A stretch of DNA of 61,595 nt, the filler included. It is 4 parts of 4 records of this genome, joined end to end, with 100 filler letters (N's around TTAATTAATTAA, not from the genome) between each part and the next. Parts side by side here need not be neighbours in the genome. Positions count along the whole stretch, not along the records: positions 38,610 to 50,146 come from SRR31156797_5527; 3 more parts are not named here. One strand, given 5' to 3'. A program made the translations under genes and the position numbers. A model generated the notes under the pieces. It was not told the origin of the DNA. It saw nothing but the letters and a program-made list of their open reading frames with translations, and did no database searches. Shown here one piece after another: positions 34,591 through 57,945 of this stretch; position 1 is the first letter of the stretch; each line of letters begins with the position of its first letter.

Positions 34591-34592
34591 CC

Positions 34593-39263: not shown

Positions 39264-39288
39264 GACTCCCAATCACTAAGGAGCCCTA
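39261..39288. terminator. Hairpin between the convergent accessory gene and phage genes
   Basis: taggactcc...ggagcccta imperfect inverted repeat. Confidence 0.4.
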
Positions 39289-39330
39289 CCACACCGCCAA
39301 CAAAGCTTGCGGTATCTGATTCCGTTAAAG

Positions 39331-40517: not shown

Positions 40518-40546
40518 TAGTGGTTTCCTTTCTATGTGTTAATTCA

Positions 40547-40569
40547 GTAGGATTGTTAGTAGTGAGGGA
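40547..40569 (-). promoter_or_regulatory. Putative third phage-RNAP promoter (partial match)
   Basis: TCCCTCACT-ACT-AACAATCC shares the 9-nt core and the downstream ACAAYCC with the copy at 46945-46985; intergenic, after the DNA polymerase gene. Confidence 0.5.
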
Positions 40570-40627
40570 CAGCAGAGGCACACCAGTAGCAGCGTAAGAA
40601 ACACCACTACTGGTGACCGGTCGATTT

Positions 40628-42415
40628 TCAATGTGTATCTTTCCAGGATGATCCGATGTCGAACGTGCCGTCCATCGGGATGTTGAGCTTAAAGTAGAGC
40701 CCGGCGTCGATGATGGCCTGCCTTGCGATCTCGCCGCACTCCTGGGCATAATCGGGGTCCGCTTCGATCTGGACCTCATCGTGAATATTCAGGACAGGGA
40801 GACACCTCTTGAAATCCAGGCGTTCCCACATGAGACAGCAGGCTTTCTTCATAACGTAGGCACCTGCTGATTGGAGCAATAGGTTAAGAGCAGAATGTGA
40901 CGACCGGCTGTAGAGCCGTTGACCAGCCAGGCCAGTGATCCAGCCATGCTTCTCCACCTGTTTGGTGATCTTGTCGATCAGGGCACCCAGGTGTGGCAGG
41001 TTCCGCAGGAAGTTATCCCGCAGTTTCTTACCCAGCTTGGCATCACCTTTGCCTAACAGCTTGTTCCCGGCACCGTAGATGAAGCCATAGAACCATGTCT
41101 TGCCGTCAGATCTACTGAGCCCCAGGGCATCGGCGTTTTTCTGGTGGATGTCACCATTGAGAACAATGTCGATGTATTCCGGATCATTCATGAAGCTCGC
41201 CAAGAGGCGCAACTCAAGGCCAGCAGCATCGCAGCCCACCATGACTCTGCTTGGTGTTGGCACAAAGACTGACCGGCAGCGCTTACCATACTTGACACCA
41301 TTAGCAGGGACCTGAGCCAGGTTGGGATTACTATGGGTGCATCGGTTGGTGATCGCACCGCAACTGTTGACATACCCACGGATACGCCCGTCGTCGTCGA
41401 TGAATTTGACCCATGCTTTGGCACCGGTACTCACCTGGCTCAGACGCTTCTTGATCAGCTTGTACCGGGCTAGAGGTCCGCACTCGGGATAGACCGATGT
41501 CAGGGCCTCAAGGATCTCATCATCAATCTTGGGCTCCTTGGACTTGTCGGTGAACTCAACGGGTTTCCAGCCGTGGGTCCTTATCAGATATTCATAGATG
41601 TGTTTGTTTGCATTGGGATTGAACTCAACGTACTTGATCTTAGTCATTGAGGCACCCTTGATGTAGCCGTACCTCTTGTTGTCAGCCTTTGGTGTAAACA
41701 GCTTGCCCTTAACGATCACCGGCCTGTTAAAGATGTCGGCAATCTCAAGGCGTGTAGTCTCCAGATCAGTCCAGAGATCAGCGATCAAATTGTCCAGAAC
41801 CACCTGATCAGCATACACACCGATTCGCATCTGAAGGGAAATGAACCGTGCGAAATCATGCTCAATATCACAGGCATCAGTGCCAAACCCAGGGCGTTCC
41901 CTGAGCCGTTCGAGTAGATCCACGGTTACCCGGACATCCTGTTTACAATAGGTTGTCATCTCAGGTTCCCAGAACTGCCAGTCCTGATCCTTGCCGTAAT
42001 CGCCTTTGTAATTACCCAGGCGATAACCATAGGCCTCCAGGCTGTGAGAGCCGATCAGCTTAGGTGGCAGCATACCCTTACGGGCACGGGCATAGTCTCC
42101 TTGTTTGATAGTTGGGTTGAGTAGCCTGGCAAGCACCAATGTATCGGTGGATTTTGCTGGCGGTTTGTACCACGGGTAGACCATGGCGATGGCCTGCTCA
42201 TCGTAGCCAATAACATTGTGGCCGCAAGTCTCATCTCCAGCCTCAAGAAGTCTGCGGACTCCAAGTTCAACGGGTCTCTTCTCTTGATCATAGATTTCAT
42301 ACTGGTTTGTCTCTGTATCGAAGATCACAATGCAGTGGATTTTGGTTAATTGACGAATATCCTTTTTAGGTTCAGGCCTGAGTAGGCCATCTGTTTCAAC
42401 GTCATATATGAGCAA
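40628..42415 (-). CDS. T7 gp5-like DNA polymerase (family A, 3'-5' exo + pol)
   Basis: YDVETDG exo I, GHNVIGYD exo II, HSLEAYG, YCKQDV exo III, DAAGLELR motif A, KTWFYGFIYG motif B, IHDE motif C; TTG start after GGAGG. Confidence 0.96.
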   Translation of the reverse strand: MLIYDVETDGLLRPEPKKDIRQLTKIHCIVIFDTETNQYEIYDQEKRPVELGVRRLLEAGDETCGHNVIGYDEQAIAMVYPWYKPPAKSTDTLVLARLLNPTIKQGDYARARKGMLPPKLIGSHSLEAYGYRLGNYKGDYGKDQDWQFWEPEMTTYCKQDVRVTVDLLERLRERPGFGTDACDIEHDFARFISLQMRIGVYADQVVLDNLIADLWTDLETTRLEIADIFNRPVIVKGKLFTPKADNKRYGYIKGASMTKIKYVEFNPNANKHIYEYLIRTHGWKPVEFTDKSKEPKIDDEILEALTSVYPECGPLARYKLIKKRLSQVSTGAKAWVKFIDDDGRIRGYVNSCGAITNRCTHSNPNLAQVPANGVKYGKRCRSVFVPTPSRVMVGCDAAGLELRLLASFMNDPEYIDIVLNGDIHQKNADALGLSRSDGKTWFYGFIYGAGNKLLGKGDAKLGKKLRDNFLRNLPHLGALIDKITKQVEKHGWITGLAGQRLYSRSSHSALNLLLQSAGAYVMKKACCLMWERLDFKRCLPVLNIHDEVQIEADPDYAQECGEIARQAIIDAGLYFKLNIPMDGTFDIGSSWKDTH

Positions 42416-42471
42416 GGACTACACCTCCCTGTATGCGGAATCGTTAGCCACGTTATGGGCCTCGCATTTGT

Positions 42472-42660
42472 TCATATGGTTCTCCTATGCTTTCTGATAA
42501 ATTGATGAATGAGCCGCCGGTATATCCACACATCCATTCTGTCGATGGACACATGGGCGATCAGGAGATCACAGTAGCGGCGGGCGTTATGGAGTTGGGG
42601 AAGGGTTCGGCAGGAGGTGATTATCTTGTGCATCCTCCTGAGAGGATCATTAGAAGTCAT
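42472..42660 (-). CDS. Small phage hypothetical protein
   Basis: 62-aa ORF overlapping the helicase stop, same strand as the operon. Confidence 0.4.
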   Translation of the reverse strand: MTSNDPLRRMHKIITSCRTLPQLHNARRYCDLLIAHVSIDRMDVWIYRRLIHQFIRKHRRTI

Positions 42661-44311
42661 TCAGGTTTGAGGCGTTGTCAGTACCATCCCAGGCGTTCTC
42701 CTCGAATGGCAGCAGGCGTCCAGTCGTTGGGTTATACTCAAGGGTATCAGCAATGCCGACCGCACCAGTGAGCCTGTTCTTGAGGACCCGTACTGTTCTG
42801 ACATTGGGCTGATCACCTTGCTGGTCACCCTCAAGGCTGATCACAAAGTCGGGGATCTGTTCCAGGGCTGCGGACCCGCGCAGATCCGTGAGTGAAACCT
42901 GGCGTCCTTCATTCCAGGATTTACCTTGACCGGGCCTCTTCAGATGAGACACAGCAATGACGGTCACACCGGTCTCCTCGACAAGGGAACGCAGGGCTGT
43001 CATGAGTTGATCAAGTTGTTTTCGTTCCGAGGATTCCACCTCATCGTTGCCGGACACCACGATTGACACATGGTCCACCAGCAGGATATCCATCTCCAGG
43101 GCACGGACCAGATAGCGCATCTTGGTTAGCACGGTGGTAATATCACTGGAGCCCCAGTGTTGATCGAATGCTATGTTGTCGTTGTGGATCACCGCCTCTG
43201 CTGCCTTGGTGATCTCCGCATCTGATGGGCGCTTGATGTGGATCGGTTGGTTCAACCACAGGCTCATGAACCCTTCGCATGACTGCTTGAGATCCTCTTC
43301 CCATGCCATCACACCAACCTTCTTGCCATGGTTCATCAACAGGTCGTAGCAGATTTCCTTACCCAGGGTGGATTTACCAATGCCGGAGCCAGCGGTAATC
43401 AGGTAGAGCCGCTTGCCGTGGATACCCAGTGTCTTAGCATTGAGCTTTGGATATGGTGTCTGGACCCCAGGCTCGGGCCGAAAGAGCAGCGTCGCCAGGG
43501 GAACATCACGTCCCAGGACAATGCCGTCAGGACGCCAGGGTTTGGCCTCAAAGATGCACTTTGGGACCTCAGCACCACGGTTTTCAAGCAAGAGTTCATT
43601 GGCATCCTTGAGACCATTCCAGGTGGCAATCGAGGCCTTACCCACGGTGAGTAATTGGGCACACTGCTTGGCTGCTTTCTGACCCGGTTCATCAGCGTCG
43701 AACGCAATGACCACCTTCTTGAATGACTCAACGAATCTCAGATTCTGCTTGATGTATTTGAGGGCACTGGCTGCACCGCTGGGCACCGACACCACGGGGA
43801 TCTTGAGGTTAAATGCCTGGGAGATGGTGAGACAATCGAGTTCACCCTCGGTGATGACCAAAAGTCGGCCACCGGGTTGCCAAAGGTGCTGACCGAAAAG
43901 CTCCAGGTGTTTTACCTGTCCGGTCCACCAGAAGTCCTTGTCCTTGGTCCGGTAATGCTGGGCCACCTCTTTGTTGGAGTGACGGTAGGTTGCGACCTGG
44001 ACGATTCCACTCTTGGTCCGGGCGTATCCATAGCCGTACTTTTGGCAGGTCTTCTTGAGGAGCTTTCGCGCTTTAATCTCTTTAATGTCCGGGCGTAGCA
44101 GGCTTCCTGAATCCGATCCAGAGTTACCGCCAGTCCAATCACCAGGATCATCATTGTTGTCGGGTCCATCGGCCTCCTCCACTATGGCTTTCTTGTCGTA
44201 GGCCTCGCAGACGAAACAGTAACCATGTCCATCGGTATAGACTGCATAGCCATCGCTGGAACCACAGGCCTCATGGGGACACGCTGTTTTATAATGGTCT
44301 CCATCATGCAC
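42650..44311 (-). CDS. T7 gp4-like primase-helicase
   Basis: CPHEACGSSDG...GYCFVC Zn finger, ITEGELD and FDADEPG TOPRIM, AGSGIGKST, LVDH, VSHLKR, DLRGS, KNR; acidic tail ending DF; GTG start after GGAGG. Confidence 0.96.
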   Translation of the reverse strand: MHDGDHYKTACPHEACGSSDGYAVYTDGHGYCFVCEAYDKKAIVEEADGPDNNDDPGDWTGGNSGSDSGSLLRPDIKEIKARKLLKKTCQKYGYGYARTKSGIVQVATYRHSNKEVAQHYRTKDKDFWWTGQVKHLELFGQHLWQPGGRLLVITEGELDCLTISQAFNLKIPVVSVPSGAASALKYIKQNLRFVESFKKVVIAFDADEPGQKAAKQCAQLLTVGKASIATWNGLKDANELLLENRGAEVPKCIFEAKPWRPDGIVLGRDVPLATLLFRPEPGVQTPYPKLNAKTLGIHGKRLYLITAGSGIGKSTLGKEICYDLLMNHGKKVGVMAWEEDLKQSCEGFMSLWLNQPIHIKRPSDAEITKAAEAVIHNDNIAFDQHWGSSDITTVLTKMRYLVRALEMDILLVDHVSIVVSGNDEVESSERKQLDQLMTALRSLVEETGVTVIAVSHLKRPGQGKSWNEGRQVSLTDLRGSAALEQIPDFVISLEGDQQGDQPNVRTVRVLKNRLTGAVGIADTLEYNPTTGRLLPFEENAWDGTDNASNLNDF

Positions 44312-44552
44312 GTTCCACCTCCGCATGGATCTCATCAACGCTCAGATCTTCGACCAGCAAGGTGTCCATCAATCGCAGGTTGCGGGCCTCAATGTTCGGA
44401 TCATAGAAATCCCTGGGGTCCAGACCCAGGCTCAACATACCGATGCGGACATCGTTAAGGACAATCCTTGGGACCAGGATTCGTTTGATCTTGACGCCGT
44501 TCTCTTTGACATACTCAATGATCTGCTTCAGGTCCTTTATGCTTTTATTCAT
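44304..44552 (-). CDS. Phage hypothetical protein
   Basis: AAGGAG RBS, 82 aa, overlaps the primase start. Confidence 0.65.
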   Translation of the reverse strand: MNKSIKDLKQIIEYVKENGVKIKRILVPRIVLNDVRIGMLSLGLDPRDFYDPNIEARNLRLMDTLLVEDLSVDEIHAEVERA

Positions 44553-44562
44553 AGGGTTCTCC

Positions 44563-45381
44563 TTATTGATTGATCTTGAGATAGACGGCGAGTTTAGGAC
44601 GAAGGGTATTCAGATCTGCATGGCTCTTGAAAATGGTCACAGCGTCGCGGTGCCACTGGGTTATGGGGTAACGGGTGCCAGGGATCTTATGATAGGGTAG
44701 ATCATACTTATCGCTGATCTCCTTGAGATGCATACCGATCATAAGCTGAACATGATTGGAGCCAGCACTGCTGAAGACCTGTTTAAGCCAGGGGATCGCC
44801 GTACTGGTCATGAACTCAGGGTTCTCATACTTCTCTTTGAGACGGTTGGCTTCACGCTTTGCTGCACTGGCTGTTCCCATTGCACTGGCTTCACGCTTCC
44901 GGCTGATGTGAGCCTTGGTCCTGATGGCCTCGTCACGCTCCAGTTTGATCTGCTTCATTTTCTGAAGAACCCCGATCATATAGTCAGGATCTTCCAGGGT
45001 CTTCGCCAGGGCGTCGTCGGTCATGTAGGTGCCACCTGTTTTACGGATGGTGGGTAGGACATCTTCCATTACCCATTCCTCAAACTGTTCAGCCCAGGGG
45101 AGTTTGGATTTCATGATGAGGCGGTAGACATCTGATTCGGGAATGATGGTCAGACCACGGGATGGAATATTTACCAAAGGTAGCGAAACGCTACTTTTGA
45201 GGATTGACGCACGTTTGCAATGTTTCTTGATGGCATCTCTTGAGTTCACATACCCCAAAGCTTCTGCCACATCCTTACCAACAAACCAGGGATTACCATC
45301 CCGTTCAACAATCCGAACCTCACATAGTGTCGGGGAGGTGTTATCTTCATAGTCGAAAGTAAAAGCCTTAAGCTCAGTCAT
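44563..45381 (-). CDS. BRO-N domain (antirepressor-like) protein
   Basis: VRIVERDGNPWFVGKDVAEALGY, IPESDVYRLIMKSKLP, FEEWVMEDVLPTIRKTG; AAGGAG RBS before ATG 45381. Confidence 0.9.
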   Translation of the reverse strand: MTELKAFTFDYEDNTSPTLCEVRIVERDGNPWFVGKDVAEALGYVNSRDAIKKHCKRASILKSSVSLPLVNIPSRGLTIIPESDVYRLIMKSKLPWAEQFEEWVMEDVLPTIRKTGGTYMTDDALAKTLEDPDYMIGVLQKMKQIKLERDEAIRTKAHISRKREASAMGTASAAKREANRLKEKYENPEFMTSTAIPWLKQVFSSAGSNHVQLMIGMHLKEISDKYDLPYHKIPGTRYPITQWHRDAVTIFKSHADLNTLRPKLAVYLKINQ

Positions 45382-45438
45382 AGGGTTCTCCTTGTATGAG
45401 TGATGGCGTGGCACCTTTCGATACCACGATGTTCGGTT

Positions 45439-45624
45439 CTATTTGTCTGTGTATTTGTCGCGGGCCTGTGCATAATTGGCGTAGAACAGGATGCAGTGTT
45501 CGCAGTCCGTCGAGTTGCAATCGTATGTGTCAGACAGCAGGCATTCATCACCGGATGGTTCGCTGAATGATTCAGTCACCGCTGGCAACTGGAGCGGTAT
45601 CGTTTGTTCAATGGTGAGACTCAT
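45439..45624 (-). CDS. Small acidic Cys-rich phage protein (61 aa)
   Basis: AGGAGA RBS then MSLTIEQTIP...ECLLSDTYDCNSTDCEHCILF; true start lies inside the longer track ORF. Confidence 0.6.
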   Translation of the reverse strand: MSLTIEQTIPLQLPAVTESFSEPSGDECLLSDTYDCNSTDCEHCILFYANYAQARDKYTDK

Positions 45625-45640
45625 AATGTTTCTCCTATTG

Positions 45641-46069
45641 TTATTCGTTAAGCCATTCCTCGGGGACGAACTTGTTGGCCCACAGAAAGCGGTTCTTCTC
45701 GCACCACTGGGCGTAAGTTGTCTTGCTGGATTGACTGAGTTTGTTCTGGGAATTCTGAAAGACGAACCGGATGTCAGCGTCGGGGTGAGCCTTGCGTACC
45801 AGGATCGCTTTCTTGCGGTCGGCGGGCTCGAACAGACCTTTGGCCTCGATATAAATGATGGCACCGGACTGCCGCTTAATGATGAAGTCAGGGGTGTATC
45901 GTTTAGATTCAGCAGGAACTGTGTAGGGGAGAGTGATTGTCTCATAGTCAAACCCAATGCCACGCTGGGTAAGGTTCTGAGCAAGGTGCTTCTCAAACAT
46001 TGAGCGGTACGGTGCCATCTCTACCCGTTGGTGCTTCGTAGGGTAGAAACGACGACGGTAACCAGACAC
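45641..46069 (-). CDS. T7 gp3-like endonuclease I (Holliday junction resolvase)
   Basis: YRSMFE, YTPDF, IEAKGLF, IRFVFQ, TTYAQWCEK. Confidence 0.93.
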   Translation of the reverse strand: MSGYRRRFYPTKHQRVEMAPYRSMFEKHLAQNLTQRGIGFDYETITLPYTVPAESKRYTPDFIIKRQSGAIIYIEAKGLFEPADRKKAILVRKAHPDADIRFVFQNSQNKLSQSSKTTYAQWCEKNRFLWANKFVPEEWLNE

Positions 46070-46689
46070 TAAAAGTCCGGTTCGCCCTGATCATCAGGTC
46101 CACCGGATGATTCACCATCCCAGTCATCGCCAGCACCACCACCGGCAGCTACCAGCTCATTGACCTTCACACCCACCAGACGCAATGACACACCGGCCTT
46201 ACCAGAGGCAGGATTATAGAAGGCGTACCCCTCGTATTCGATCTGGATCTTGGAGCCACTACCGATCTTGCCGATCCGTTCCTCCAGATCAACCAGCTTG
46301 ACCCACTTGCCGCGCTCATCATAGTAGTTGACGTAGATGGGCTTCATTTCACCGGTCTTCTTATCCTTGAATTCAGCCAGGCGTTTGAACCTGAAGACAG
46401 TGTCGCCGGTCAATTCATCCTGATCGTCGTATACCTCTTCATATGGGTAATACTTCCGGGCTTCATCGCGCTCTTTCTTCTTGAGACTCTTGGTCTCGAT
46501 CTCAAACGCTTCATCAACCAAGGAGTTGATCTGTTCAATAAGGTCCTGACATTCAGGGCTATCGGTAAGCAGGAGCAGATCAGTCTTCCATGACTTCTTG
46601 CCTTTGTATTCATCCGGGATGTTGAGCCAGGGGTAACGTGCAGTTCCTTCAGTGGTTTTGTAACGGGGAGCATATTGCTTTTTAGCCAT
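46069..46689 (-). CDS. T7 gp2.5-like ssDNA-binding protein
   Basis: GTARYPWLNIPD, IGSGS, AGVSLRLVGVKV; acidic tail ending EPDF; directly upstream of endonuclease I. Confidence 0.88.
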   Translation of the reverse strand: MAKKQYAPRYKTTEGTARYPWLNIPDEYKGKKSWKTDLLLLTDSPECQDLIEQINSLVDEAFEIETKSLKKKERDEARKYYPYEEVYDDQDELTGDTVFRFKRLAEFKDKKTGEMKPIYVNYYDERGKWVKLVDLEERIGKIGSGSKIQIEYEGYAFYNPASGKAGVSLRLVGVKVNELVAAGGGAGDDWDGESSGGPDDQGEPDF

Positions 46690-46697
46690 GGGTCTCC

Positions 46698-46889
46698 TTA
46701 ATTAATGATATCGGGGTTGATGTAGATGTCGATGGGCATGAAGCCATCATCGAATGCGTCCCACACTGCGGCAGGACTGATGTCGTGATCGTCAAGATTG
46801 TCCCAAACGTTTTTACTGAGATAGGCCTCATCGTCCTGGTACTCGGTGTAAGCACGTTCGATCCACTCTTGGATGCTCTTGGTTTTCAT
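46698..46889 (-). CDS. Small acidic phage hypothetical protein
   Basis: 63 aa, Asp/Glu-rich; first gene after the promoter copy at 46945-46985. Confidence 0.55.
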   Translation of the reverse strand: MKTKSIQEWIERAYTEYQDDEAYLSKNVWDNLDDHDISPAAVWDAFDDGFMPIDIYINPDIIN

Positions 46890-46944
46890 GTCGCTATTTC
46901 ATATGACCTCCATGTAAGGGTTAAGGGTTGAACCCGGCAAAATT

Positions 46945-46985
46945 TCGATGGGTTGTCTGAAGTGAGGGAGTTGTGGTCAGCATGA
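46945..46985 (-). promoter_or_regulatory. Putative phage-RNAP promoter, copy downstream of RNAP gene
   Basis: TCATGCTGACCACAACTCCCTCACTTCAGACAACCCATCGA; CCCTCACT core as in the T3 promoter; 34/41 identical to 49947-49987. Confidence 0.75.
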
Positions 46986-47000
46986 GGAAATTAGACCCTT

Positions 47001-47042
47001 CAAAAAATAGCAAAGGACCCGCAGTCCAGACGCAAAGGTCCG
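47001..47042 (-). terminator. Possible early terminator after RNAP gene
   Basis: ggacc...ggtcc stem followed by tttgctattttttg on the minus strand. Confidence 0.35.
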
Positions 47043-47087
47043 AACTACAGGAGTTTCCGTATGTCGACAGTTCATATCAGGAAGGTG

Positions 47088-49817
47088 TTAGGCAAAAGAA
47101 AAATCTGCCTGTAGCATTAGAGCCGGGTCCCAGGTCCCAGGCGTTATCCTTTCAGGAAGGCCTTGAGTAATGGTATCTAACACTTTCTCTGTGGCGGTAA
47201 TCAATGCCCCGATGCGCTTGGTCTCCTTGGGTTGCTCGACCTTTTCTATGTCTGCCTGGAGAGTAGCCAAGGTGTCAGTCCACCTAATCTCAGCTTGGTC
47301 TATTAAAGGTATGACGTCCTTTATAAAGGCATCAATCCTGTCATCATTGTAAAGTTCCATGAATGTACGTTGGAGGGTTTCATGCAGTTCGGCACTCACG
47401 GATGGGAGGGCAGCGAACGAGTCATGGATGACCACTATATCCTTATGTTCAAATGGATCTGGGACCCCCTGCTCGCCATCAATGAGATTGAACCCGGCGT
47501 TGCAGAACTCATTGATCACAGTCCGCAGGTGGCAGGCGTCATAGCTATGAATGAAGTTTGCAGCCATACCGTTCTTCATACGGCCTTGAGCCATGCCTTT
47601 ATCCTTGGGTTCCTGGACCCGTGGTTTCAGGTAGGTCCCGCCCCAGTAGGTATCAATTTGTTTCATAGCCATCTGGCGGTAGCTCATGGATACACGGACC
47701 CCATCAGGCATAGTCCATATCATGGGTGTATCAGCCTTGGCACATATCTCAGCAACCTCTTGCATCCAGTCCATGAATTGGGTCCCCTTGACAATGACCT
47801 GTCGCATTCCCTTACTGATCATCCCCTTGAGGTAAGTACAGGCGTTGAACTTCTGGTCGTCAGACACCTCGATCAGCTTCTTGCCTTTGTCCTCATGCTT
47901 CTGGAGCAGTTCCAATAGCTGCTTTACATATGTACGATCCTTGGCACCGTACACAAAGGTCATGACCGCTGCTTTACAGCATTTTCTTGTGATCACTCCA
48001 TCCCAGAGTTGCGCCATTTCGTTATCAGCTTGTGCATCAGCGTGAACGAGGGGTGCGATGACCTCAGCGACCTTGCCATAGATGTCATTTGGAAGGTGAT
48101 GCGGCATAAGATTAACCTCAAAGGCGCACACTTCATCCTTGAGCATACCGCTGATGTGCTGCAGGCCACTGCAAGATCCATCCTGGGCAGACGGGATGCG
48201 GCACATGAAGTCCGGAGACTTACCGGTCTTGAGCCAGTCGGCATACTCAAAGGTCCAGGCCAGATAGGTCAACGCCTTGTCAGCCTTGAGCCAGAGCGCA
48301 TTGTCACGCCAGGGGTTTTCAGCGTCGTCCAAGATCTCCCGTTCATGCAGATCCACCCACCGTTCACGATCCTCGAAGGACAGTTTGTCCACCGCCTTGT
48401 CATTCCAGGGTCCGGCGATTCCACAATCACAGGTCTCGGCGAAACACCCGGCACCATGCCTCTTGAACCACGCTTCCGCATGCGCACTGTTGCTGATAGG
48501 AAGCTCATTCTTCAAATAAATTAGGGACTTCCCCACATCGTTAGCCTGGGGAGACACATGGTTCTGCTTGCAGTTGATCCGGCCACGCCACTCGGCTGTA
48601 TAGCAGAAGTAGATGGCATCCTCATCCTTGAACCGGTTGGCGATCTCAATTTGCTTGAAAAAGCCGGACCTCTTGCTAACATTTTTGGCCCATGCTTCGT
48701 GCCTCAACATGTATGGTCTTTGAACTTTCTTATAGGCATCAAGGTTATTCTTCTTGAGATCCTCCATCTCTTCATCACTGGACCACGGGCGTACCGGGGC
48801 GTCCTCGAACAGTTTGGCTTTATCCAAAGGCACAACCCCTGCGATCCCGCCTTCGCGGTCCCGGATCTCTTTGATGATCTCCAGCATACGCTTGTTAATA
48901 CGCCAGGGGACTGCCTGCAGTTTGTTCACGGCGGTTTTGATAGGTTCCAGGTCACTAAGCTTGGGATCAGACTTATGGCTCTCCTTATTGGGACCCACCA
49001 GGTTATACCTCGTGCCTACATGCTGGCCCAGGTGCCCACCGTCGGACTCATTGGTCCAGTCCAGGGGTGGCATGACCATTGGCATATGCATGGGTTGACG
49101 AATCTCATGGTACTCATGGGCATTGTCCAGTTTAGCGACTATCTCAGGGTAGGGGACCCACATCTTGGTGGGCTTGTGCTTCTTATTGGTTTTAGCACTG
49201 TTGTAGATGTCCTCAACGTAGCCTACATGAGCGTTGCTACATAGGGTTGTCAGTAAGACCATACCCATCTTGATCCGGTCAGCCTCGGACCAGCGTTCAA
49301 ATGCTGTTTCTGGGCTGGTGTTCGCCCGGTTCTTGATGACGATCCGCTTCTGGCTATCACTCTTCATACGGACAAAGTTCTTCACATTGTTGAAGTACTG
49401 TGGATTCTTAACCTTGAAGTTAATGTACCCGACGTGATCATTGACAGCGGTCCCAATGGCTTTACAGACAGCGGTCAGGGGGATACCATTCTCATGGATG
49501 ATATTGAACACCGTCCTCAATGTAACAAAGGCGACCTCCATAGGGCTAATATCCTTGAGATACTTCCTTGCAATAATATCTCTCCTGCAACTCTTGGCAC
49601 CGGTACGTTTGAGGATAGCTATTAAGCCATCAGATTTGCCTTTACCTCTAAGGAAGGGGTTCATATAAGATCTGATTGCTGCGGCCTCTGATGCCATCGT
49701 TTCGACGCCTCCTTTGGTCCGTGCATTTTGCAGTGCTTTACGGTAGGACGCGATGCCAATCTCAACTGATTCCATTTCGAGTGCGAGCTGACGATTGATC
49801 ATATCTTGAGTGATCAT
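47088..49817 (-). CDS. Single-subunit T7/T3-like DNA-directed RNA polymerase
   Basis: PMVMPPLDW, WRINK, WRGR, DGSCSGLQH (motif A), RKCCKAAVMTFVYG (motif B), NFIHSYDACH, IHDSF (motif C), C-terminal DFSFA; AAGGAG RBS. Confidence 0.97.
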   Translation of the reverse strand: MITQDMINRQLALEMESVEIGIASYRKALQNARTKGGVETMASEAAAIRSYMNPFLRGKGKSDGLIAILKRTGAKSCRRDIIARKYLKDISPMEVAFVTLRTVFNIIHENGIPLTAVCKAIGTAVNDHVGYINFKVKNPQYFNNVKNFVRMKSDSQKRIVIKNRANTSPETAFERWSEADRIKMGMVLLTTLCSNAHVGYVEDIYNSAKTNKKHKPTKMWVPYPEIVAKLDNAHEYHEIRQPMHMPMVMPPLDWTNESDGGHLGQHVGTRYNLVGPNKESHKSDPKLSDLEPIKTAVNKLQAVPWRINKRMLEIIKEIRDREGGIAGVVPLDKAKLFEDAPVRPWSSDEEMEDLKKNNLDAYKKVQRPYMLRHEAWAKNVSKRSGFFKQIEIANRFKDEDAIYFCYTAEWRGRINCKQNHVSPQANDVGKSLIYLKNELPISNSAHAEAWFKRHGAGCFAETCDCGIAGPWNDKAVDKLSFEDRERWVDLHEREILDDAENPWRDNALWLKADKALTYLAWTFEYADWLKTGKSPDFMCRIPSAQDGSCSGLQHISGMLKDEVCAFEVNLMPHHLPNDIYGKVAEVIAPLVHADAQADNEMAQLWDGVITRKCCKAAVMTFVYGAKDRTYVKQLLELLQKHEDKGKKLIEVSDDQKFNACTYLKGMISKGMRQVIVKGTQFMDWMQEVAEICAKADTPMIWTMPDGVRVSMSYRQMAMKQIDTYWGGTYLKPRVQEPKDKGMAQGRMKNGMAANFIHSYDACHLRTVINEFCNAGFNLIDGEQGVPDPFEHKDIVVIHDSFAALPSVSAELHETLQRTFMELYNDDRIDAFIKDVIPLIDQAEIRWTDTLATLQADIEKVEQPKETKRIGALITATEKVLDTITQGLPERITPGTWDPALMLQADFSFA

Positions 49818-49874
49818 AGACGTGAATCTCCTTATGATGTCTGGACAAACTAATAGGTGGTATGAAGGGGGATT

Positions 49875-49943
49875 GATCTTTGAGTTAGATCATGGGATTA
49901 GGTGGAGCTTAGGGATGGATCTTTAGGTTGGATCTTAGGGTGA
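49875..49943. repeat. Five degenerate 13-bp repeats headed by GATC/GAGC in the RNAP leader
   Basis: gatctttgagtta, gatcatgggatta(ggtg), gagcttagggatg, gatctttaggttg, gatcttagggtga. Confidence 0.65.
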
Positions 49944-49946
49944 TAA

Positions 49947-49987
49947 TCGTTGGGTTCTTCAAAGTGAGGGAGTTATAGTCAGCATGA
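49947..49987 (-). promoter_or_regulatory. Putative phage-RNAP promoter directly upstream of the RNAP gene
   Basis: TCATGCTGACTATAACTCCCTCACTTTGAAGAACCCAACGA; repeat of 46945-46985. Confidence 0.75.
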
Positions 49988-50060
49988 AAATAAATAGGTC
50001 GGTGGGCCGTGCTGACCCTCTTTGAGTCAGCAAATGGGGTGTGGAACAGAGCGTGAAACG

Positions 50061-50095
50061 AAAAAAGGGACCCTTGGGTTTAACCAAGAGTCCCT
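50061..50095 (-). terminator. Intrinsic terminator downstream of the tRNA
   Basis: Minus strand agggactcttgg ttaaac ccaagggtccct ttttt. Confidence 0.8.
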
Positions 50096-50118
50096 ATTAA
50101 TTCAGTAGCTTATGTTAA

Positions 50119-50146
50119 TGGCGCGCCCGGCGCGATTCGAACACGC
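50119..50146 (-). tRNA. 3' part of a tRNA (probably tRNA-Arg); candidate att core
   Basis: GCGTGTTCGAATCGCGCCGGGCGCGCCA: T-loop, acceptor strand and encoded CCA. Isotype inferred from the acceptor stem only. Confidence 0.8.
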
Positions 50147-50246
50147 NNNNNNNNNNNNNNNNNNNNNNNNNNNNNNNNNNNNNNNNNNNNTTAATTAATT
50201 AANNNNNNNNNNNNNNNNNNNNNNNNNNNNNNNNNNNNNNNNNNNN
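50147..50246. other. Artificial contig-joining linker
   Basis: N-run, TTAATTAATTAA, N-run. Confidence 0.98.
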
Positions 50247-50275
50247 AGCGCGTCTACCAATTCCGCCACCTGGGC
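50247..50275 (-). tRNA. 5' part of a tRNA, probably tRNA-Leu (truncated)
   Basis: GCCCAGGTGGCGGAATTGGTAGACGCGCT; TACATTTG -7 promoter element at 50302-50295. Confidence 0.8.
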
Positions 50276-50418
50276 ATTGCTTTTGAATGCGATGCAAATG
50301 TAGATAAATGTTTCATTCTCGCAAAACAAAATCTACATTTTTTTCAAAAAAAATTAAAAGGTAAAAATCAGTGCAAATGCCCATGATTGCTAGATACACT
50401 GACTTTCACTTTATTAGT

Positions 50419-51957
50419 TTATTTTGGCATTGTATATTCTAGTCCAGCTCCCGGTCCTAATGGCAAGCCTAACAATATCCATCCCATCAATAATATTACC
50501 CAAACCACAAAGAAAGCCACCGAATACGGCAACATGGTTGCGATAATGGTTCCTATTCCCGATTTCTTATCGTATTTCTGAACGTAAGCAATAATTAGCG
50601 CAAAGAAACTCATCATTGGAGAAATTACATTGGTTACAGAATCACCAATGCGATATACTACCTGTGATAATTCTGGAGAATATCCCATCAGCATAAACAT
50701 AGGAATGAAAATTGGAGCCATAATTGCCCACTTAGCCGAAGCCGAGCCCATGAGCATATTGATTAGAGCCGATAAGAGAACGAAAAGTATCATTAAAGGA
50801 ATCATCCCTATATCCGCAGCCATAAGTGCTCCTGCTCCTTTAATAGCCATAATTACCCCTAAGTTAGACCATTTAAAATAGGCTACAAATTGAGCTGCAA
50901 AAAAGACAAGTACATAATATCCGGCAAGGGTTTCCATCGATTTTCCCATTCCCTTCATGATATCGGCATCCGATTTGAAAACTTTAGCTCCAAATCCGTA
51001 AGCAATACCACATCCTCCTGCTCCAAGAAACAATAGTGCTACAACACCTTTAATCAACGGAGAAGTTAAAAAACCACCATCAGATCCACGGAAAAATCCA
51101 TTTTCTGGAAGTAAACCCCAAATAGTAATAGCGGTTAGGAAAAGAACAACATATAGTGCCCAACGCAATCCTCGTCGCTCTAAATCGTTCAAATCATGAA
51201 TTTCTTCCTTATGATCGGCGGCATCTTTATATACTCCCAGGCGAGGTTCTATGACTTTTTCGGTTACTAGTGTACCTACCGTTGCAATTACAAAAGTTGA
51301 AACCACCATAAAATAATAGTTAGCCGTAGGGTTAACAACTACCGTTGGATCAACAATTCGAGCAGCTTCCTGCGAAAGCCCAGCTAATAAAGGATCGATT
51401 GTTCCCAAAATTAGGTTTGCCGAAAATCCCCCGGAAACACCAGCAAAAGCCGCAGCCATACCCGCAATAGGATGACGATCGACAGCAACGAATATTATCC
51501 CGGCAAGTGGAATCAGAAGTACGTAGCCTACATCCGATGCTGTATTTGAAAGAATACCAGCCAAAACCAGAACGAACGTCAACATTTTTTTAGGTGCCGA
51601 TAATACCAATTTGCGAATTAATGTTCCGATTAATCCACTACTTTCCGCAATTCCAATACCCAGCATGGCTACCATTACAATTCCCAATGGCGCGAAACCA
51701 GTAAAATTATCTACCATCTCGATAAGTATGCGATGTAGTCCTTCTATTGATAAAAGATTAACTACTTCAATAGTCTCTTTAGTTCCTGGATGAATTGCCT
51801 GCCACCCAAAAAGGGAAGCTAGTCCAGATAATAGAATTGCCAGTATGGCAAAAATTGCAAATAATGTTGCAGGATGCGGAAGCGCATTCCCAAATTTCTC
51901 AGTTACATTTAAAAAACGATCTGTCCAGCTTCGTTTTTTCTTTAAAGTGTTTTGCAT
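50419..51957 (-). CDS. AbgT family transporter (YdaH/MtrF-like)
   Basis: [41 protein letters not shown]. Confidence 0.93.
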
Positions 51958-52236
51958 GTTAGTTAGTTGGTTAAGTTTTTCAATCGGAAAACCAATTGAA
52001 CCACAAAAAAAGGTAAAATCAAGAGATACTGCAAATAAGAATCAAGTTTGAAATTTTATGCTAACAATGGTTTTAGTAGCTTAAGCAAAAGGAACAAAAT
52101 AATTTCTTGAACTTCTGAGTTTAATCAGATAAGGATTCTCTATATTAGTATAAAGATTATTGATTTGTAATAAAGCATTTCCCCTGCTAAATTTGAGTAA
52201 ATATCAAAAACAAAACATAAACTAAACTTTTCTAAT

Positions 52237-53232
52237 ATGCCTAACTTAACAACTAACTATTTAGGATTGGATTTAAAAAATCCTATCATCGTAGCAAGCT
52301 CTGGATTAACCGATACTGTAGAAAAATTAATAGAATTAGAAGCAAACGGTGCAGGAGCCATTGTTCTTAAGTCTCTTTTCGAAGAAGAAATTGTAATGGA
52401 AATGGAAGAGCAAATGCATGCCATGACCAACCGTCCGTACATTTATCCTGAGACTTTCGACTATATGGAGGAAGAGCCTCATGAGGATATTTTGAGGAAA
52501 TATTTAAGATTGATTGAAGAAGCCAAAGCTGCTGTTTCGATTCCTATAATTGCTAGTATTAACTGTGTTAGCGCACAAAAATGGACTTACTTTTCTCGTG
52601 AAATTGAAAAAGCAGGTGCTGATGCTCTAGAGGTAAACTTATTTGTATTACCAACCGATATGAACAGAAGCGGTGAAGAAAACGAACAGATTTATTTCGA
52701 TGTATTAAAAACAGTAAAAGAACAAGTTGCCATTCCTGTTGCTTTAAAAATTAGTCCTTACCATTCCAATTTGGCGAATGTTATCAAGAAATTGGACAAT
52801 ATGGATGCGGATGGAGTTGTAATGTTCAACCGTTTTTACAGTCCTGATATTGACATTAATAATCTTAGTATTACCAGTGGACAAGTACTATCACATTCCG
52901 ATGATTACAAAAATTCATTACGTTGGATTGGAATTATGTCGGATCGTGTAAAATGTTCAATGGCGGCAACTACAGGTATTCATACTTCTGAAAGTATCAT
53001 TAAGCAAATTCTGGCTGGTGCAGATGCTGTTCAATTGGCATCCATTCTTTATAAAAACGGACCAGAATATATCGATATCCTAACAAAAGAAATTTATTCA
53101 TGGATGGAAGATCAGGGATTTGAAAACATTCGTGATTTTAAAGGCAAAATGTGCCAATCAAAATCAAATGAGCCTGCGGCTTACGAGCGTGTTCAGTTCA
53201 TGAAGAATTTCAGAAATTTCGTAATGCATTAA
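52237..53232 (+). CDS. Dihydroorotate dehydrogenase-like flavoprotein
   Basis: YLGLDLKNPIIVASS, VLKSLFEE, KISPY, FNRFY, ILAGADAVQ, AYERVQFMK. Confidence 0.85.
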   Translation: MPNLTTNYLGLDLKNPIIVASSGLTDTVEKLIELEANGAGAIVLKSLFEEEIVMEMEEQMHAMTNRPYIYPETFDYMEEEPHEDILRKYLRLIEEAKAAVSIPIIASINCVSAQKWTYFSREIEKAGADALEVNLFVLPTDMNRSGEENEQIYFDVLKTVKEQVAIPVALKISPYHSNLANVIKKLDNMDADGVVMFNRFYSPDIDINNLSITSGQVLSHSDDYKNSLRWIGIMSDRVKCSMAATTGIHTSESIIKQILAGADAVQLASILYKNGPEYIDILTKEIYSWMEDQGFENIRDFKGKMCQSKSNEPAAYERVQFMKNFRNFVMH

Positions 53233-53270
53233 AAAGAACCTTTTGTTTTATAAAAAATAAATATCCTTTC

Positions 53271-53303
53271 AGCCCGAGTCAAGTAATTGATTCGGGCTTT
53301 TTT
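53271..53303 (+). terminator. Intrinsic terminator
   Basis: agcccgagtcaa gtaa ttgattcgggct ttttt. Confidence 0.8.
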
Positions 53304-53412
53304 ATATTCTTAAACCGTTAAACTGATAAAAATCATTACTATTTAGATTTAGTTTTATTAAATTGTATACTTCTATAGTTTAAGCATAAATACAGTAAAA
53401 ATTCATAATCAC

Positions 53413-54972
53413 ATGGAAACGACAACTACACAAAAAATCATGAAAAATTTTGATGTACAGGATACACTACAACGATTGGGCATAAAAGAATTAAATGCCG
53501 GAGTCTCAACAGGAACTGAATGGTTCGACTGCAAAGGTGCTGTTACCGAATCCTTCTCTCCTATTGATGGATCTTTAATTGCGAAAGTTCAAAATGCAGA
53601 TGGAGATGATTATGAAAAAGTACTTGTAAAAGCGCAAGAAGCATTTAAAGTATGGCGTAAAATGCCAGCCCCAAAACGAGGTGAAATTGTTCGTCAAATT
53701 GGAAATGCCTTACGCGACGCTAAAGATGATTTGGGTAGATTGGTTACTTTGGAAATGGGTAAAATCTATCAGGAAGGCTTAGGTGAAGTTCAAGAAATGA
53801 TAGACATTTGCGACTTTGCTGTAGGACAATCGAGAATGCTTTATGGATTTACAATGCACTCGGAACGACCAGATCACAAAATGATGGATCAATATCATCC
53901 GTTAGGGATTACTGGTGTTATTTCTGCTTTTAACTTCCCAGTTGCAGTTTGGGCATGGAATGCAATGATAGCCGCTGTTTGTGGTGATGTTGTAATCTGG
54001 AAACCTAGCTCTAAAGTTCCTCTTTGTGCAATCGCATGTCACAATATCATTCAAAAAGTATTAAAAGATAATGATGTTCCTGAAGGTGTTTTCAATTTGG
54101 TTGTTGCTAAATCATCAGTAATGGGTGATAACTTTATTGAAGACAAACGTGTTCCACTAATATCAGTAACCGGATCAACAGCTATTGGAAAACGTGTGGC
54201 TGAAAAAGTTGGTGCTCGTTTGGGAAGAACCATTGCTGAATTGGGTGGAAACAATGCAATTATTGTTGCTCCAACTGCTGATTTGGATCTGGCAATTCCA
54301 GGGATTGTTTTCGGTTCGGTAGGTACTGCAGGACAAAGATGTACTTCTACTCGTCGACTAATCATTCACGAAAGTATTTACGATGATGTAAAAGGTCGAT
54401 TGCTGAATGCATACAAACAAGTTGAAGGAAAAATTGGTAATCCACTTGATGAAAATACTTTGGTTGGACCGGTAATTGATGAAGGTGCTGTTGAAGTTTA
54501 TAAAACTGCCATTGCCGAGGTAAAAAAAGCAGGTGGTAAAATTGTATTTGGTGATAAGGTTATTGAAGGCAATTTCGTACTTCCAACTTTCTGCGAGGTA
54601 GAAAACCACTGGCAAATTGTTCAGGATGAATCTTTTGTTCCGGTATTGTACATCATGAAATACAAAACTTTGGAAGAAGCAATTGAATTGCACAATGATG
54701 TTCCTCAAGGATTATCATCCTCAATCTTTACCATGAACATGCGCGAAGCTCAAACTTTTATTTCTGCAGTTGGTAGCGATTGCGGAATAGCAAATGTTAA
54801 TATTGGAACTTCAGGTGCCGAAATTGGTGGTGCATTTGGTGGTGAAAAAGAGACTGGTGGCGGACGCGAATCAGGTTCAGACTCTTGGAAAACATACATG
54901 AGAAGACAGACAAACACCTTAAACTATGGTAATGATTTGCCATTAGCACAAGGAATCAAATTTGACTTATAA
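53413..54972 (+). CDS. ALDH7/antiquitin-type aldehyde dehydrogenase (aminoadipate-semialdehyde/P6C dehydrogenase-like)
   Basis: [58 protein letters not shown]. Confidence 0.92.
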
Positions 54973-55000
54973 ACGATAACATTCAAATTTTAATAATGTA

Positions 55001-55029
55001 AGGCCTCCGCTAATGCGGGGGCTTTTTTT
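55001..55029 (+). terminator. Intrinsic terminator
   Basis: gcctccgc taat gcgggggc ttttttt. Confidence 0.8.
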
Positions 55030-55194
55030 ATTTAATTCTTCCAAATTTATAGCGTAATTCGAGCTTCTCACCTATCAAAATCACTAATTCACACATTAAT
55101 GCAATATCATTCACAAAAGCCTTTCACATAATTTTTTAAAGCCTTCATAAATTCTTATTTTTGATGCAACACTATACCATCCAATCTGTTTACT

Positions 55195-57945
55195 ATGCTG
55201 AGAAAAATTTTGACCTCTTTTTTCATTTTTTTGCTTTTGGCAATCATTGTTTTAGGCTATTTATATCTTCAAAAACAAAAAGAATACAAAGGAATTGATC
55301 CCTTCTCGGCAATACCGGTAAACTCAGAATTAATCATTCAATTTGAGAGTTTGGAAAAACTCATTACCAAATTAGAAAATAACACTGGTGCATGGAAAGA
55401 GCTTGGCAACTTCGAAAAAATAGCAAAAATCAATAACAACCTTCAGTTTATTGATAGTTTGGTTAGCAATTTTGATTCAGATTATTCTTTTTCATTAGAT
55501 CGCAGTTTTACCATGGCTAGTCATTTGCAAGGTAAAAATGATATTGAATATCTCTACATCTTGCCAATTAATGACTACCTGGAAGAAAAGAAAATTCAAA
55601 GCTCTGTTAGCAATTGGATCGGTCCGGATTTACAGTTAAGAGAACGACATTACCAAAATACAACTCTTTATACCATTCCGAACTCTTCCAAAAAAGGTGA
55701 AGAATTGCACTTTTCATTCTCAAATGGCTTATTTATTGGAAGTCGATCCATGTTATTATTGGAAAACTCGATTCGACAATTGAGTACCGAAAATTCTATT
55801 TCCAAATCGAAAGGATTTGAACAAATCAGAAGAACAATTGGTAAAAATGTTGATGCCAATATATTCTTAAATTTAAAGACTTTCCCAAAACAGATCTCAT
55901 TTTCATTAGATAAAAGTCACAGTAAATTTATCCGCAACTACACCAATTTAGCAAACTGGACAGAGCTTGATCTTAGCTTTAGAAACCGAATTATTTTACT
56001 GAATGGCTTTACTTATAGTGATCCTCAACAAGGGAATCTGATGAATCTATTTTTGCAGCAAGAACCTGTTAAAATGGAAATGGAATCCATTCTTCCTTCA
56101 GAGACTGGTATTTTGGCAGTATTGGGTATTGCAGATCCTTTAATGCACAAGGGAAAATATCGAAAGTTCTTGGATCAAATGGGGAAACTATCCGACTATC
56201 AAAAGGATATCAATGATTTAAAAAAGAAAACAGGAGAAGATTTTGAAGAAATCATATTCTCAATTATCCATAAAGAAATTGGTTTAGCATTTGCTGAAGG
56301 TAATTCTGATAAAAGATTCACCGTAATAAGAACCAAAAGTGCAAGTATTGCCAAAGAGAAAATGCTGAAGCCTGTTTTGGGATACGCTAAAAAGCAACAA
56401 CGCACTTTGGCATATTACAAAAGAACCTATAAACTAGATTCAGAAACTTCATTCGATATCTACAGATTACCGGATGATCGTTTGCCAGAAAAGCTCTTTG
56501 GAAGCTTTTTTACGGATGCCTCATCGGCTTATTTTACCTTTATCGACAACTATTTGGTTATGGGACCGAATATCAACTCCTTATCGGAGTTCATTAAAGA
56601 ATCAGTTCTAGGAAAAACCCTTGATAGCAATCAGAGTTATCAGGAAAATAAAGAGTTTCTTTCCAATAAAGCCAACTTCTTCTTTTATACGGCAACACCA
56701 AAAGCAAATCGATTTATATCAAGCTTTTTAAATGAAGAATTGCAAAAAGAAATTAAAAATCATAAGGAAAGTGTAAACAAATTTCAGGCAATTGGCTTGC
56801 AATTGAGTTCGAACCGAAACTTAATTTACAACAACTTGTTTATCGAGTACGATCCGGTTTTGGAAGCTGCCCCACAAACCGATTGGGAATCCAGATTAGA
56901 TACTTGTTTCAAGCACAAACCCTATTTGGTAAGAAATCATTACACCAAGGAGAATGAAATTCTGATTCAGGATATCAACAATCAATTGTGCCTTTTGAAT
57001 CCAGCAGGTAGAATGCTATGGAAAAAACCATTGGATTCTAAAATCATTGGAGAAATTCAGCAAGTTGATTACTTCAAAAATAACAAATTGCAATATCTGT
57101 TTGCAACCAAAAAGCATTTGCATTTGATTGATAGAAATGGCAACAACGTAAAGAATTATCCAATTCGATTAAAATCGGATGCGGTAAGAGGAGTTTCCAT
57201 ATTCGATTACGATAAAAATCGCAATTATCGATTCTTTATTCCTTGCAAGGATCAAAAAGCATACGCTTACACTAAAGAAGGAAAAATACTTACCGGATGG
57301 AATCCTGCGAAGGCTGAAAACCAAATTACAAGCCAAATTCAGCATTTCAGAGTCAACAACAAAGATTACATTGTTTATGCCGATAAATACCGAGTATACA
57401 TTTTAAATCGACGTGGTGCAGAACGAGTAAAACTCAAGAAGCAATTCTCAAAATCAGAGAAGAATCCTTTCTTCCTGGAAAAAACGAATAGCCGTTTGGT
57501 TACAACTGATACCAATGGTACCATTCACTATATTTATTTTACAGGAAAAGTGGAAAGCAAAACATTTACCGAATTATCGGAAGCACACTTTTTTACTGCT
57601 GCCGACTTGAATTCTGATGGTAAAAATGAATACCTGTTTGCAGATTATAATTTCCTCAAGGTTTTTGATGCTTCTGGAAAAACAAAACTCGAGAAAAAAT
57701 TCGACTCTGGTATCAGCTATGCTCCTCATGTTTACAGGTTCTCCAGAAGGAATATCGAGATTGGAATATGTGTTGAAAATGAGAATAAAATTTACTTGCT
57801 TGATACCAATGGTAACAATCACAGTGGATTTCCTCTGAAAGGCAACACAGAATTTTCCATTGGCTTTGCCAAATCGGGTGATAAATCTTTTAACCTATAC
57901 GTAGGAGATAATCGTAACTTCTTGTTAAACTACTCCGTACACTAG
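55195..57945 (+). CDS. Large membrane-anchored conserved hypothetical protein (DUF3352-like N-part, beta-propeller-like C-part)
   Basis: N-terminal TM helix; C-terminal DYFKNNKLQY, DYDKNRNY, DLNSDGKNE and GFP blade-like motifs. Confidence 0.65.
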   Translation: MLRKILTSFFIFLLLAIIVLGYLYLQKQKEYKGIDPFSAIPVNSELIIQFESLEKLITKLENNTGAWKELGNFEKIAKINNNLQFIDSLVSNFDSDYSFSLDRSFTMASHLQGKNDIEYLYILPINDYLEEKKIQSSVSNWIGPDLQLRERHYQNTTLYTIPNSSKKGEELHFSFSNGLFIGSRSMLLLENSIRQLSTENSISKSKGFEQIRRTIGKNVDANIFLNLKTFPKQISFSLDKSHSKFIRNYTNLANWTELDLSFRNRIILLNGFTYSDPQQGNLMNLFLQQEPVKMEMESILPSETGILAVLGIADPLMHKGKYRKFLDQMGKLSDYQKDINDLKKKTGEDFEEIIFSIIHKEIGLAFAEGNSDKRFTVIRTKSASIAKEKMLKPVLGYAKKQQRTLAYYKRTYKLDSETSFDIYRLPDDRLPEKLFGSFFTDASSAYFTFIDNYLVMGPNINSLSEFIKESVLGKTLDSNQSYQENKEFLSNKANFFFYTATPKANRFISSFLNEELQKEIKNHKESVNKFQAIGLQLSSNRNLIYNNLFIEYDPVLEAAPQTDWESRLDTCFKHKPYLVRNHYTKENEILIQDINNQLCLLNPAGRMLWKKPLDSKIIGEIQQVDYFKNNKLQYLFATKKHLHLIDRNGNNVKNYPIRLKSDAVRGVSIFDYDKNRNYRFFIPCKDQKAYAYTKEGKILTGWNPAKAENQITSQIQHFRVNNKDYIVYADKYRVYILNRRGAERVKLKKQFSKSEKNPFFLEKTNSRLVTTDTNGTIHYIYFTGKVESKTFTELSEAHFFTAADLNSDGKNEYLFADYNFLKVFDASGKTKLEKKFDSGISYAPHVYRFSRRNIEIGICVENENKIYLLDTNGNNHSGFPLKGNTEFSIGFAKSGDKSFNLYVGDNRNFLLNYSVH

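Follow-up and report, generated by a model that had tools for sequence, protein, structure and literature searches.

The subject of this analysis is a gene for a T7-type single-subunit RNA polymerase (RNAP), together with the two copies of a 41-nucleotide (nt) direct repeat that bracket it, in a stretch of DNA of 61,595 nt (the window). The described system that comes closest is that of the Pseudomonas phage LUZ100. According to the LUZ100 report (PMC10134795), a phage-specific promoter, phi1, lies directly upstream of the RNAP gene, where it was mapped by transcript 5′ ends, and it stands behind a terminator that follows the integrase. Its authors, citing Boeckman et al. 2022, propose that read-through provides the ignition, that a positive feedback loop follows and that MarR represses from sites flanking the promoter. 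A self-promoted RNAP with feedback and MarR control is therefore already proposed for LUZ100 and related phages (PMC10134795), and within the literature searched the positive-feedback model was found only in the LUZ100 paper and preprint.

As described there, LUZ100 and the window locus are alike in being of the integrase-bearing T7-like type, in the order of a terminator on the integrase side, a phage-specific promoter and the RNAP gene, and in the mechanism proposed. They differ in their RNAP and promoter sequences, which show no relationship at the level of the motif, and in that the window locus is known from sequence alone. To what the LUZ100 text describes, the window adds a second, extended copy of the predicted promoter right after the RNAP gene, and candidate operator half-sites on both copies.

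In T7 and T3 too, gene 1 is flanked on either side by the phage's own promoter, both copies being on one strand, and the downstream copy lies within tens of nt of the stop codon. The likeness to T3 goes further, because the core of the window repeat, CCCTCACT, equals that of T3, and aspartate occupies the position of T7 N748 in both polymerases. However, the upstream copy of T7 and T3, phiOL, is 2.6-2.8 kb away, ahead of the host promoters A1-A3 and of all early genes, with no terminator or attachment (att) site beside it and no integrase, whereas the upstream copy in the window is 129 nt from the RNAP gene and is the only promoter-like element seen there. The engineered T7 autogene, which is T7 gene 1 under a T7 promoter, shares with the window a polymerase gene behind its own promoter; the case in the window differs in being natural, in having a terminator upstream and in its candidate operators.

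The nearest isolated RNAPs are those of temperate T7-like phages with MarR and integrase genes (Pasto, RHEph01, S2B, BB8, CRP-125 and the HTVC019P-type pelagiphages), from which the window differs in RNAP identity (27-29%) and in the motif outside the core. In the pelagiphages, the integrase and the RNAP gene have the phage attachment site (attP) between them, and the bacterial site (attB) lies in tRNA genes (bioRxiv 10.1101/410191).

The flanking repeats as predicted promoters

The two repeats are very likely promoters for the T7-type RNAP that they bracket. This reading is based on a T3-like core, on the intergenic position of both copies on the gene strand, on the presence of copies at the same positions in a relative, and on the co-variation of the core with the specificity loop of the polymerase. 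The same features of position, core, relatives and co-variation lend support to the suggestion of an earlier note on this DNA that the repeats are cognate RNAP promoters.

The repeat itself, which the earlier note had described as 41 bp with 34 of 41 positions identical, was recovered by a repeat search, by shuffling and by an exact 13-mer. With 34/41 identities (83%), it is the top-scoring 41-nt direct ungapped match within the 11,537-nt contig that holds the gene; 0 of 20 dinucleotide shuffles reach 34 (their scores are 26-29), and 8e-7 pairs this similar are expected from composition. The 13-mer AACTCCCTCACTT occurs exactly at the two repeat copies only, over the whole window, and on the minus strand in both. 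Both copies lie on the RNAP gene strand and are intergenic. One had been placed about 130 nt upstream of the RNAP start, past a terminator, and this is where it lies: 129 nt separate the end of copy 1 from the RNAP ATG at 49817, and the terminator precedes it. Copy 2 is found 102 nt past the RNAP stop and 55 nt ahead of the ATG of the next open reading frame (ORF), which is the position of T7 phi1.1A and T3 phi1.05. The CCCTCACT core is identical to positions −11 to −4 of annotated T3 promoters, and a purine follows 3-4 nt later (TCA-G after the core in copy 2, TTG-A in copy 1). The start positions in Table 1 were predicted by aligning the copies to annotated 23-nt T3 promoters.

The protein of 909 amino acids (aa) encoded between the repeats scores above the cut-offs of both PF00940 (RNA_pol) and PF14700 (RPOL_N). 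The equivalents of T7 D537, K631, Y639, H811 and D812 are all conserved in it, as seen in an alignment of 10 sequences that includes T7 and T3. A comparison with isolated phages returned 2,735 matching records, all less than 60% identical, the best among the matches listed being 27-29% identical. Since no isolated phage has an RNAP with more than about 29% identity to this one, the polymerase/promoter pair is new, as had been claimed.

Table 1. Features of the window discussed in the text; positions count along the whole window
Feature	Position	Strand	Remarks
Repeat copy 1	49947-49987	-	predicted cognate promoter upstream of RNAP gene
Copy 1 core	49963-49970		CCCTCACT
Copy 1 half-site GCTGAC	49978-49983		in 5′ part TCATGCTGAC
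Copy 1 predicted +1	A49959 (or G49960)		register from alignment to annotated T3/T7 promoters
RNAP gene	47088-49817	-	T7-type single-subunit, 909 aa; PF00940 7e-77 (259.6 bits), PF14700 2.2e-19
Repeat copy 2	46945-46985	-	predicted cognate promoter just after RNAP gene
Copy 2 core	46961-46968		CCCTCACT
Copy 2 half-site GCTGAC	46976-46981
Copy 2 predicted +1	G46957		register from alignment to annotated T3/T7 promoters
tRNA 3′ fragment	50119-50146	-	28 nt (T arm, acceptor strand, CCA); presumed att core; contig end
Intrinsic terminator	50066-50095	-	between tRNA fragment and copy 1; 12-pair stem, 7 G-C pairs, T-run
Palindrome GCTGAC-N9-GTCAGC	50011-50031		between terminator and copy 1; candidate repressor operator
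13-nt tandem array	49903-49940	-	RNAP leader; 2.9 copies, unit about AACCTAAAGATC, same unit in L008
Hairpin	47018-47051	-	after RNAP stop, ahead of copy 2; 14 pairs, -25.5 kcal/mol, 0/200 shuffles as stable
DNA-metabolism module	38610-47087	-	T7-like; rest of contig
63-aa ORF	46698-46889	-
Single-stranded DNA-binding protein	46069-46689	-	gp2.5-type
Endonuclease I	45641-46069	-
Bro-N protein	44563-45414	-
Primase-helicase	42650-44338	-
DNA polymerase	40628-42415	-	family A
dATP/dGTP diphosphohydrolase-like protein	39479-39817	-	112 aa; N-terminal domain PF18909, 1.2e-18
Piece A	1-27865		ordinary bacterial genes
Piece B	27966-38509		ordinary bacterial genes
Piece C	38610-50146		whole 11,537-nt contig; carries repeats and RNAP gene
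Piece D	50247-61595		ordinary bacterial genes

The 22-column motif pattern has 0 matches in viral contigs. The 14-mer CAACTCCCTCACTT has at least 118 single matches in the same contigs, and these were discarded because their flanks agree with the window at no more than 11 of 27 positions, which is the level of chance. CTCCCTCACTT, allowing up to 2 mismatches, matches L001 5 times against 4.0 expected, all by chance.

The relative prophage and the isolated phages

Searches with the RNAP found 1 locus in viral contigs and 1 distinct locus in metagenome contigs, and the two are the same prophage. It is represented by the IMG/VR provirus G001 (39,916 nt, rated 98% complete), whose RNAP is 64% identical to that of the window, and by the metagenome contig L008 (211,975 nt), which holds it with 0 mismatches over 12 kb. 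An RNAP-alignment scan of genome contigs returned 40 pattern matches and 0 relatives. The layout of this integrated prophage is that of the window: in L008, a tRNA-Lys(CTT) at 9682-9757 is followed by a terminator, the motif GGTGACACAAGCTAACGTCTACACAGAG, the RNAP ATG at 9995, a 19-pair hairpin and the motif again. The motif flanks TGAC.ACAA and CAGACAACCCATC are common to the window and L008, and the cores differ, being ACGTCTACA in L008 and CCCTCACTT in the window. Four copies of the 12-mer core are present in this prophage, at -114, 2739, 14997 and 33519; all four are on the gene strand and intergenic, and they are therefore distributed as phage-polymerase promoters are. The copy at 14997 precedes the structural genes and that at 33519 follows the T7-type terminase. 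The two copies that flank the RNAP gene in L008 are identical at 20/20 positions.

The polymerases themselves were compared by aligning ten RNAPs and reading the residue at the T7 N748 position, which sets the difference between T7 and T3 at −11/−10. The window, RHEph01 and T3 have aspartate at this position, and CCCTCAC is present in all three motifs. T7 and L008 have asparagine, with other cores, and BB8 and CRP-125 have lysine and share GGTTGCAC. Around the positions that changed, the loop shows no other difference between the window and L008. As read from these aligned sequences, the motif core co-varies with the residue at the T7 N748 position. The window RNAP is further set apart by about 44 inserted aa close to its C terminus (47100-47300, residues ~840-885), which neither L008 nor T7 has and which directly precede the conserved C-terminal FSFA tail.

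In the isolated phages, a tyrosine integrase lies just upstream of the RNAP gene in 6/6 of the nearest isolates examined (RHEph01, S2B, Pasto, jiawei, BB8 and CRP-125). The RHEph01 motif, ATTACCCCTC[A/C]CTTAAG, has all of its 7 copies on the gene strand, with 0 on the reverse strand and 0 in the control; two of them are ahead of the RNAP gene and one is just after it. The S2B motif is likewise on the gene strand in 3/3 copies, one of them on either side of the RNAP gene. In a survey in which the 300 nt ahead of the RNAP gene were matched to the 200 nt behind it (match at ≥18/20 positions, reached by none of 200 shuffles), 6 of 8 integrase-bearing genomes gave such a flanking match, namely the window, L008, RHEph01, S2B, BB8 and CRP-125, and T7, the control, gave none. 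Thus, the autogene topology noted earlier is real, and a self-promoted RNAP layout is a trait of this clade, conserved in the window, in L008 and in 4/6 isolated integrase-bearing relatives, each of which has a motif of its own flanking the gene.

These comparisons bear also on another explanation put forward in the earlier note, that the repeats are the recombination boundaries of an exchangeable RNAP cassette. Direct repeats that bracket exactly one gene would be expected of such a cassette, as would the full identity of the flanking copies in L008. Nevertheless, the motif is particular to each lineage and fits the RNAP of that lineage, and it is also found far from the RNAP gene in relatives (G001/L008, RHEph01 and S2B). 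No RNAP-less or swapped form was seen, and the only joint across part of the RNAP gene (47896-49214, metagenome run X2) is a single contig of depth 2.3 with a 29-nt side, and it does not end at the repeats. The lineage-specific motifs and their distant copies leave the cassette unsupported, and it can hardly be credited.

A different possibility is that the repeats serve mainly as sites for a regulator, such as repressor operators, or as promoters for the host polymerase. The repeat passes −17, its GCTGAC half-site matches the nearby palindrome, and TATAAC occurs within copy 1. On the other hand, the best-conserved block is the T3-like core and not the half-site, copy 2 has CACAAC where copy 1 has TATAAC, and a scan of the contig found no sigma-70-like hexamer pair at either copy. 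Furthermore, the two late copies of the relative retain the core without the half-site, and the core tracks the specificity-loop residue. This explanation of the repeats is consequently very improbable.

Several observations weigh against the identification of the repeats as promoters of the RNAP. The two copies differ in the predicted +1 base, with A for copy 1 and G for copy 2. The repeat reaches 10 nt further upstream than a T7-type promoter (TCATGCTGAC), and part of it must therefore have another role. The motif is seen in no more than two copies, both in the 11,537-nt contig, since the window does not include the rest of the phage. The positions of T7 R756 and Q758 are occupied by tyrosine and lysine in the window, although the bases at −9 to −7 equal those of T3 and T7; these residues follow no simple rule, the alignment is gapped near them, and the window RNAP is only 29% identical to that of T7. 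In Pasto and jiawei, the same stretches on either side of the RNAP gene (300 nt before it, 200 nt after it) yielded no common motif. As regards the regulatory genes, neither an integrase nor a MarR gene is present in piece C or in the rest of the window, and the MarR-like 114-aa ORF that overlaps the integrase start in G001 matches PF01047 with E = 4.8e-5, at 23.6 bits against a cut-off of 24.6.

Terminator, tRNA fragment and candidate operators

The window consists of four separate, unrelated contigs, with G+C contents of about 0.40-0.45, 0.53, 0.51 and 0.35. They are separated by three identical 100-nt blocks (44 N, TTAATTAATTAA and 44 N; 27866-27965, 38510-38609 and 50147-50246), and the G+C content shifts at the first and third of these. 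The blocks are contig joiners, since a public 11,537-nt contig matches piece C end to end with 0 differences, and features read across them are therefore artefacts. Such is the case of the "tRNA" that had been described at the locus, which spans a joint: only the 28-nt 3′ fragment belongs to the RNAP contig. The 5′ half (50247-50275) is part of piece D, and between its acceptor strand and the fragment only 4/7 positions pair. ARAGORN found 0 tRNAs in the window because the contig ends cut the tRNA pieces. The fragment lies about 300 nt ahead of the RNAP gene, where in L008 the complete tRNA-Lys is found; the end of the fragment appears to resemble an arginine rather than a leucine tRNA. By eye, leucine-type tRNA 5′ halves end pieces B (38481-38509, plus strand) and D (50247-50275, minus strand), and as piece C also ends in a tRNA fragment, the assembly broke repeatedly within tRNA genes.

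Between this fragment and copy 1, the terminator has a predicted energy of −22.2 kcal/mol (z = −4.4). Terminator-like sites are not enriched over the contig as a whole (12 against 9.9 expected from shuffles), nor are sigma-70-like sites (8 against 12.0). The hairpin after the RNAP stop has a counterpart in L008, where the 19-pair hairpin with a T-run is at the same place.

Candidate sites at which a phage repressor could bind are the TCATGCTGAC extension of the repeat, the GCTGAC-N9-GTCAGC palindrome and perhaps the 13-nt array. The 441 nt that flank the RNAP gene contain 4 GCTGAC/GTCAGC sites against 0.22 expected, an enrichment of about 18-fold, and operator-like hexamers are enriched about 14-fold beside the RNAP gene of L008. 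In place of the palindrome of the window, L008 has GTGAC-N9-GTCAC, and it has GGTGAC at the 5′ edge of both RNAP-flanking motif copies, whereas both of its late copies lack GGTGAC there. The operator-like hexamer thus changes between the window phage and L008 jointly in all copies. The 13-nt array in the RNAP leader is found in L008 at 9906-9934 with 2.3 copies of the unit, and it could act as an operator, as a roadblock or as an RNA element. CCTAAAGATC, searched over the whole window with up to 1 mismatch, occurs 5 times against 4.1 expected, so that the tandem array alone is notable. In BB8, a palindrome with 10-nt arms is present at a similar place.

If the repeats are promoters of the RNAP, copy 2 would start the middle-gene transcripts, like T7 phi1.1A, and the RNAP would transcribe its own gene from copy 1, behind the terminator. 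Because copy 1 precedes the RNAP start codon, any RNAP made would transcribe its own gene, and the locus would be under positive autoregulation. The first RNAP may be made from transcripts of the host polymerase that read past the terminator, and a phage repressor (MarR-like in relatives) bound to the candidate sites may hold the loop off in lysogeny.

In the earlier note, silence and ignition were ascribed to a recombination-gated bistable switch. On this reading, integration at the tRNA would part the RNAP gene from the host early promoters, and excision would reconnect them, whereupon the self-promoter ignites. The relative fits this scheme in that the RNAP gene is the first gene past the tRNA and the terminator, and in that its far prophage end carries strong sigma-70-like promoters (TTGACA-17-TAGTAT and TTGACA-17-TATAAG), early genes, a MarR-like gene and the integrase (PF00589, 1.7e-26), all oriented away from the RNAP gene. 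The reported pelagiphage attP sites all lie between the integrase and the RNAP gene (bioRxiv 10.1101/410191). In the window, moreover, no sigma-70-like site occurs from the terminator to the RNAP start, the nearest one overlapping the start codon. Yet the terminator is on the phage side of the tRNA fragment, and if the crossover falls inside the tRNA, as is presumed, it would precede the RNAP gene in the free genome too; the proposed insulation by the terminator through integration is on this account not supported in the form given. This terminator would also receive transcripts from the tRNA promoter in a lysogen; leak-through would thus persist after integration, and recombination gating alone therefore does not explain silence. 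The published LUZ100 model requires only a repressor. The gated switch is for these reasons unlikely, although it may hold alongside the promoter reading. As to the parting of the RNAP gene from the host early promoters, the topology is seen in the relative, but integration is not visible in the window, where the contig end cuts the tRNA fragment and the adjoining pieces are other contigs. The literature searched, which left Boeckman et al. 2022 and the supplements outside its scope, contains no explicit statement of excision-gated RNAP ignition.

A more elaborate version, which is quite doubtful, combines both controls: the RNAP gene would be a self-contained, doubly guarded unit, in the order terminator, operator, promoter, RNAP, hairpin, operator and promoter, with ignition dependent on excision and a repressor holding the loop off. 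In this version, the strong early promoters would be connected, via integrase and attP, with the leaky terminator ahead of the self-promoter in the excised circle alone. Replication and packaging driven by the RNAP could then never begin on an unexcised prophage, with integration and excision serving as the checkpoint, and the repressor would keep the loop off from the co-evolving half-sites of both flanking promoters and from the 13-nt leader array.

The rest of the contig and the meaning of the locus

The gene order on piece C is the T7 early/middle gene order. The contig is best explained as the left part, with attachment site, RNAP gene and DNA-metabolism genes, of a T7-like phage or prophage that is temperate and of the integrase type. 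The best PHROG match of the dATP/dGTP diphosphohydrolase-like protein is the family annotated "endolysin; inhibits RNA polymerase", in the C-terminal part of the profile. At the contig end, an AT-rich ORF of 188 aa (38697-39263, plus strand) has no Pfam or PHROG match and is the only large ORF off the phage gene strand. Two stretches of about 40 nt (39253-39295 and 38610-38651) are common to many deeper contigs of three metagenomes, with loose ends on both sides, and this small dispersed repeat is the point where the assembly of piece C stops.

In metagenome runs X2 and X3, only small, diverged parts of piece C were matched, and in run X4 nothing of it was. A low-depth contig of an aquaculture metagenome (run X2) matches 49850-50028 with 2 substitutions and 1 insertion, none of them inside copy 1, and other samples thus contain close relatives of the phage. 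In the relative prophage, a non-coding stretch of 1.6 kb follows the terminase (G001 33,520-35,180; L007 13,520-15,180). Besides the fourth promoter copy, it contains two sigma-70 promoters close to the consensus and tRNA-like 3′ ends, and it probably marks the ends of the virion genome and the early promoters.

The locus opens no new kind of system; it adds a new polymerase/promoter pair and detail on candidate operators. With an RNAP at most about 29% identical to those of isolated phages and a predicted promoter, it is a possible orthogonal expression pair. The temperance of T7-like phages is only partly understood, given that their own polymerase drives a fast, all-or-none lytic programme. 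In this regard, the locus and its relative give a clean picture, at the sequence level, of the control region, with a terminator, a palindrome, a predicted self-promoter, tandem leader repeats, the RNAP gene and a second such promoter, which is extended. Across two lineages, concerted changes are seen in the promoter core and likewise in the candidate operator, and this provides concrete sites to mutate.

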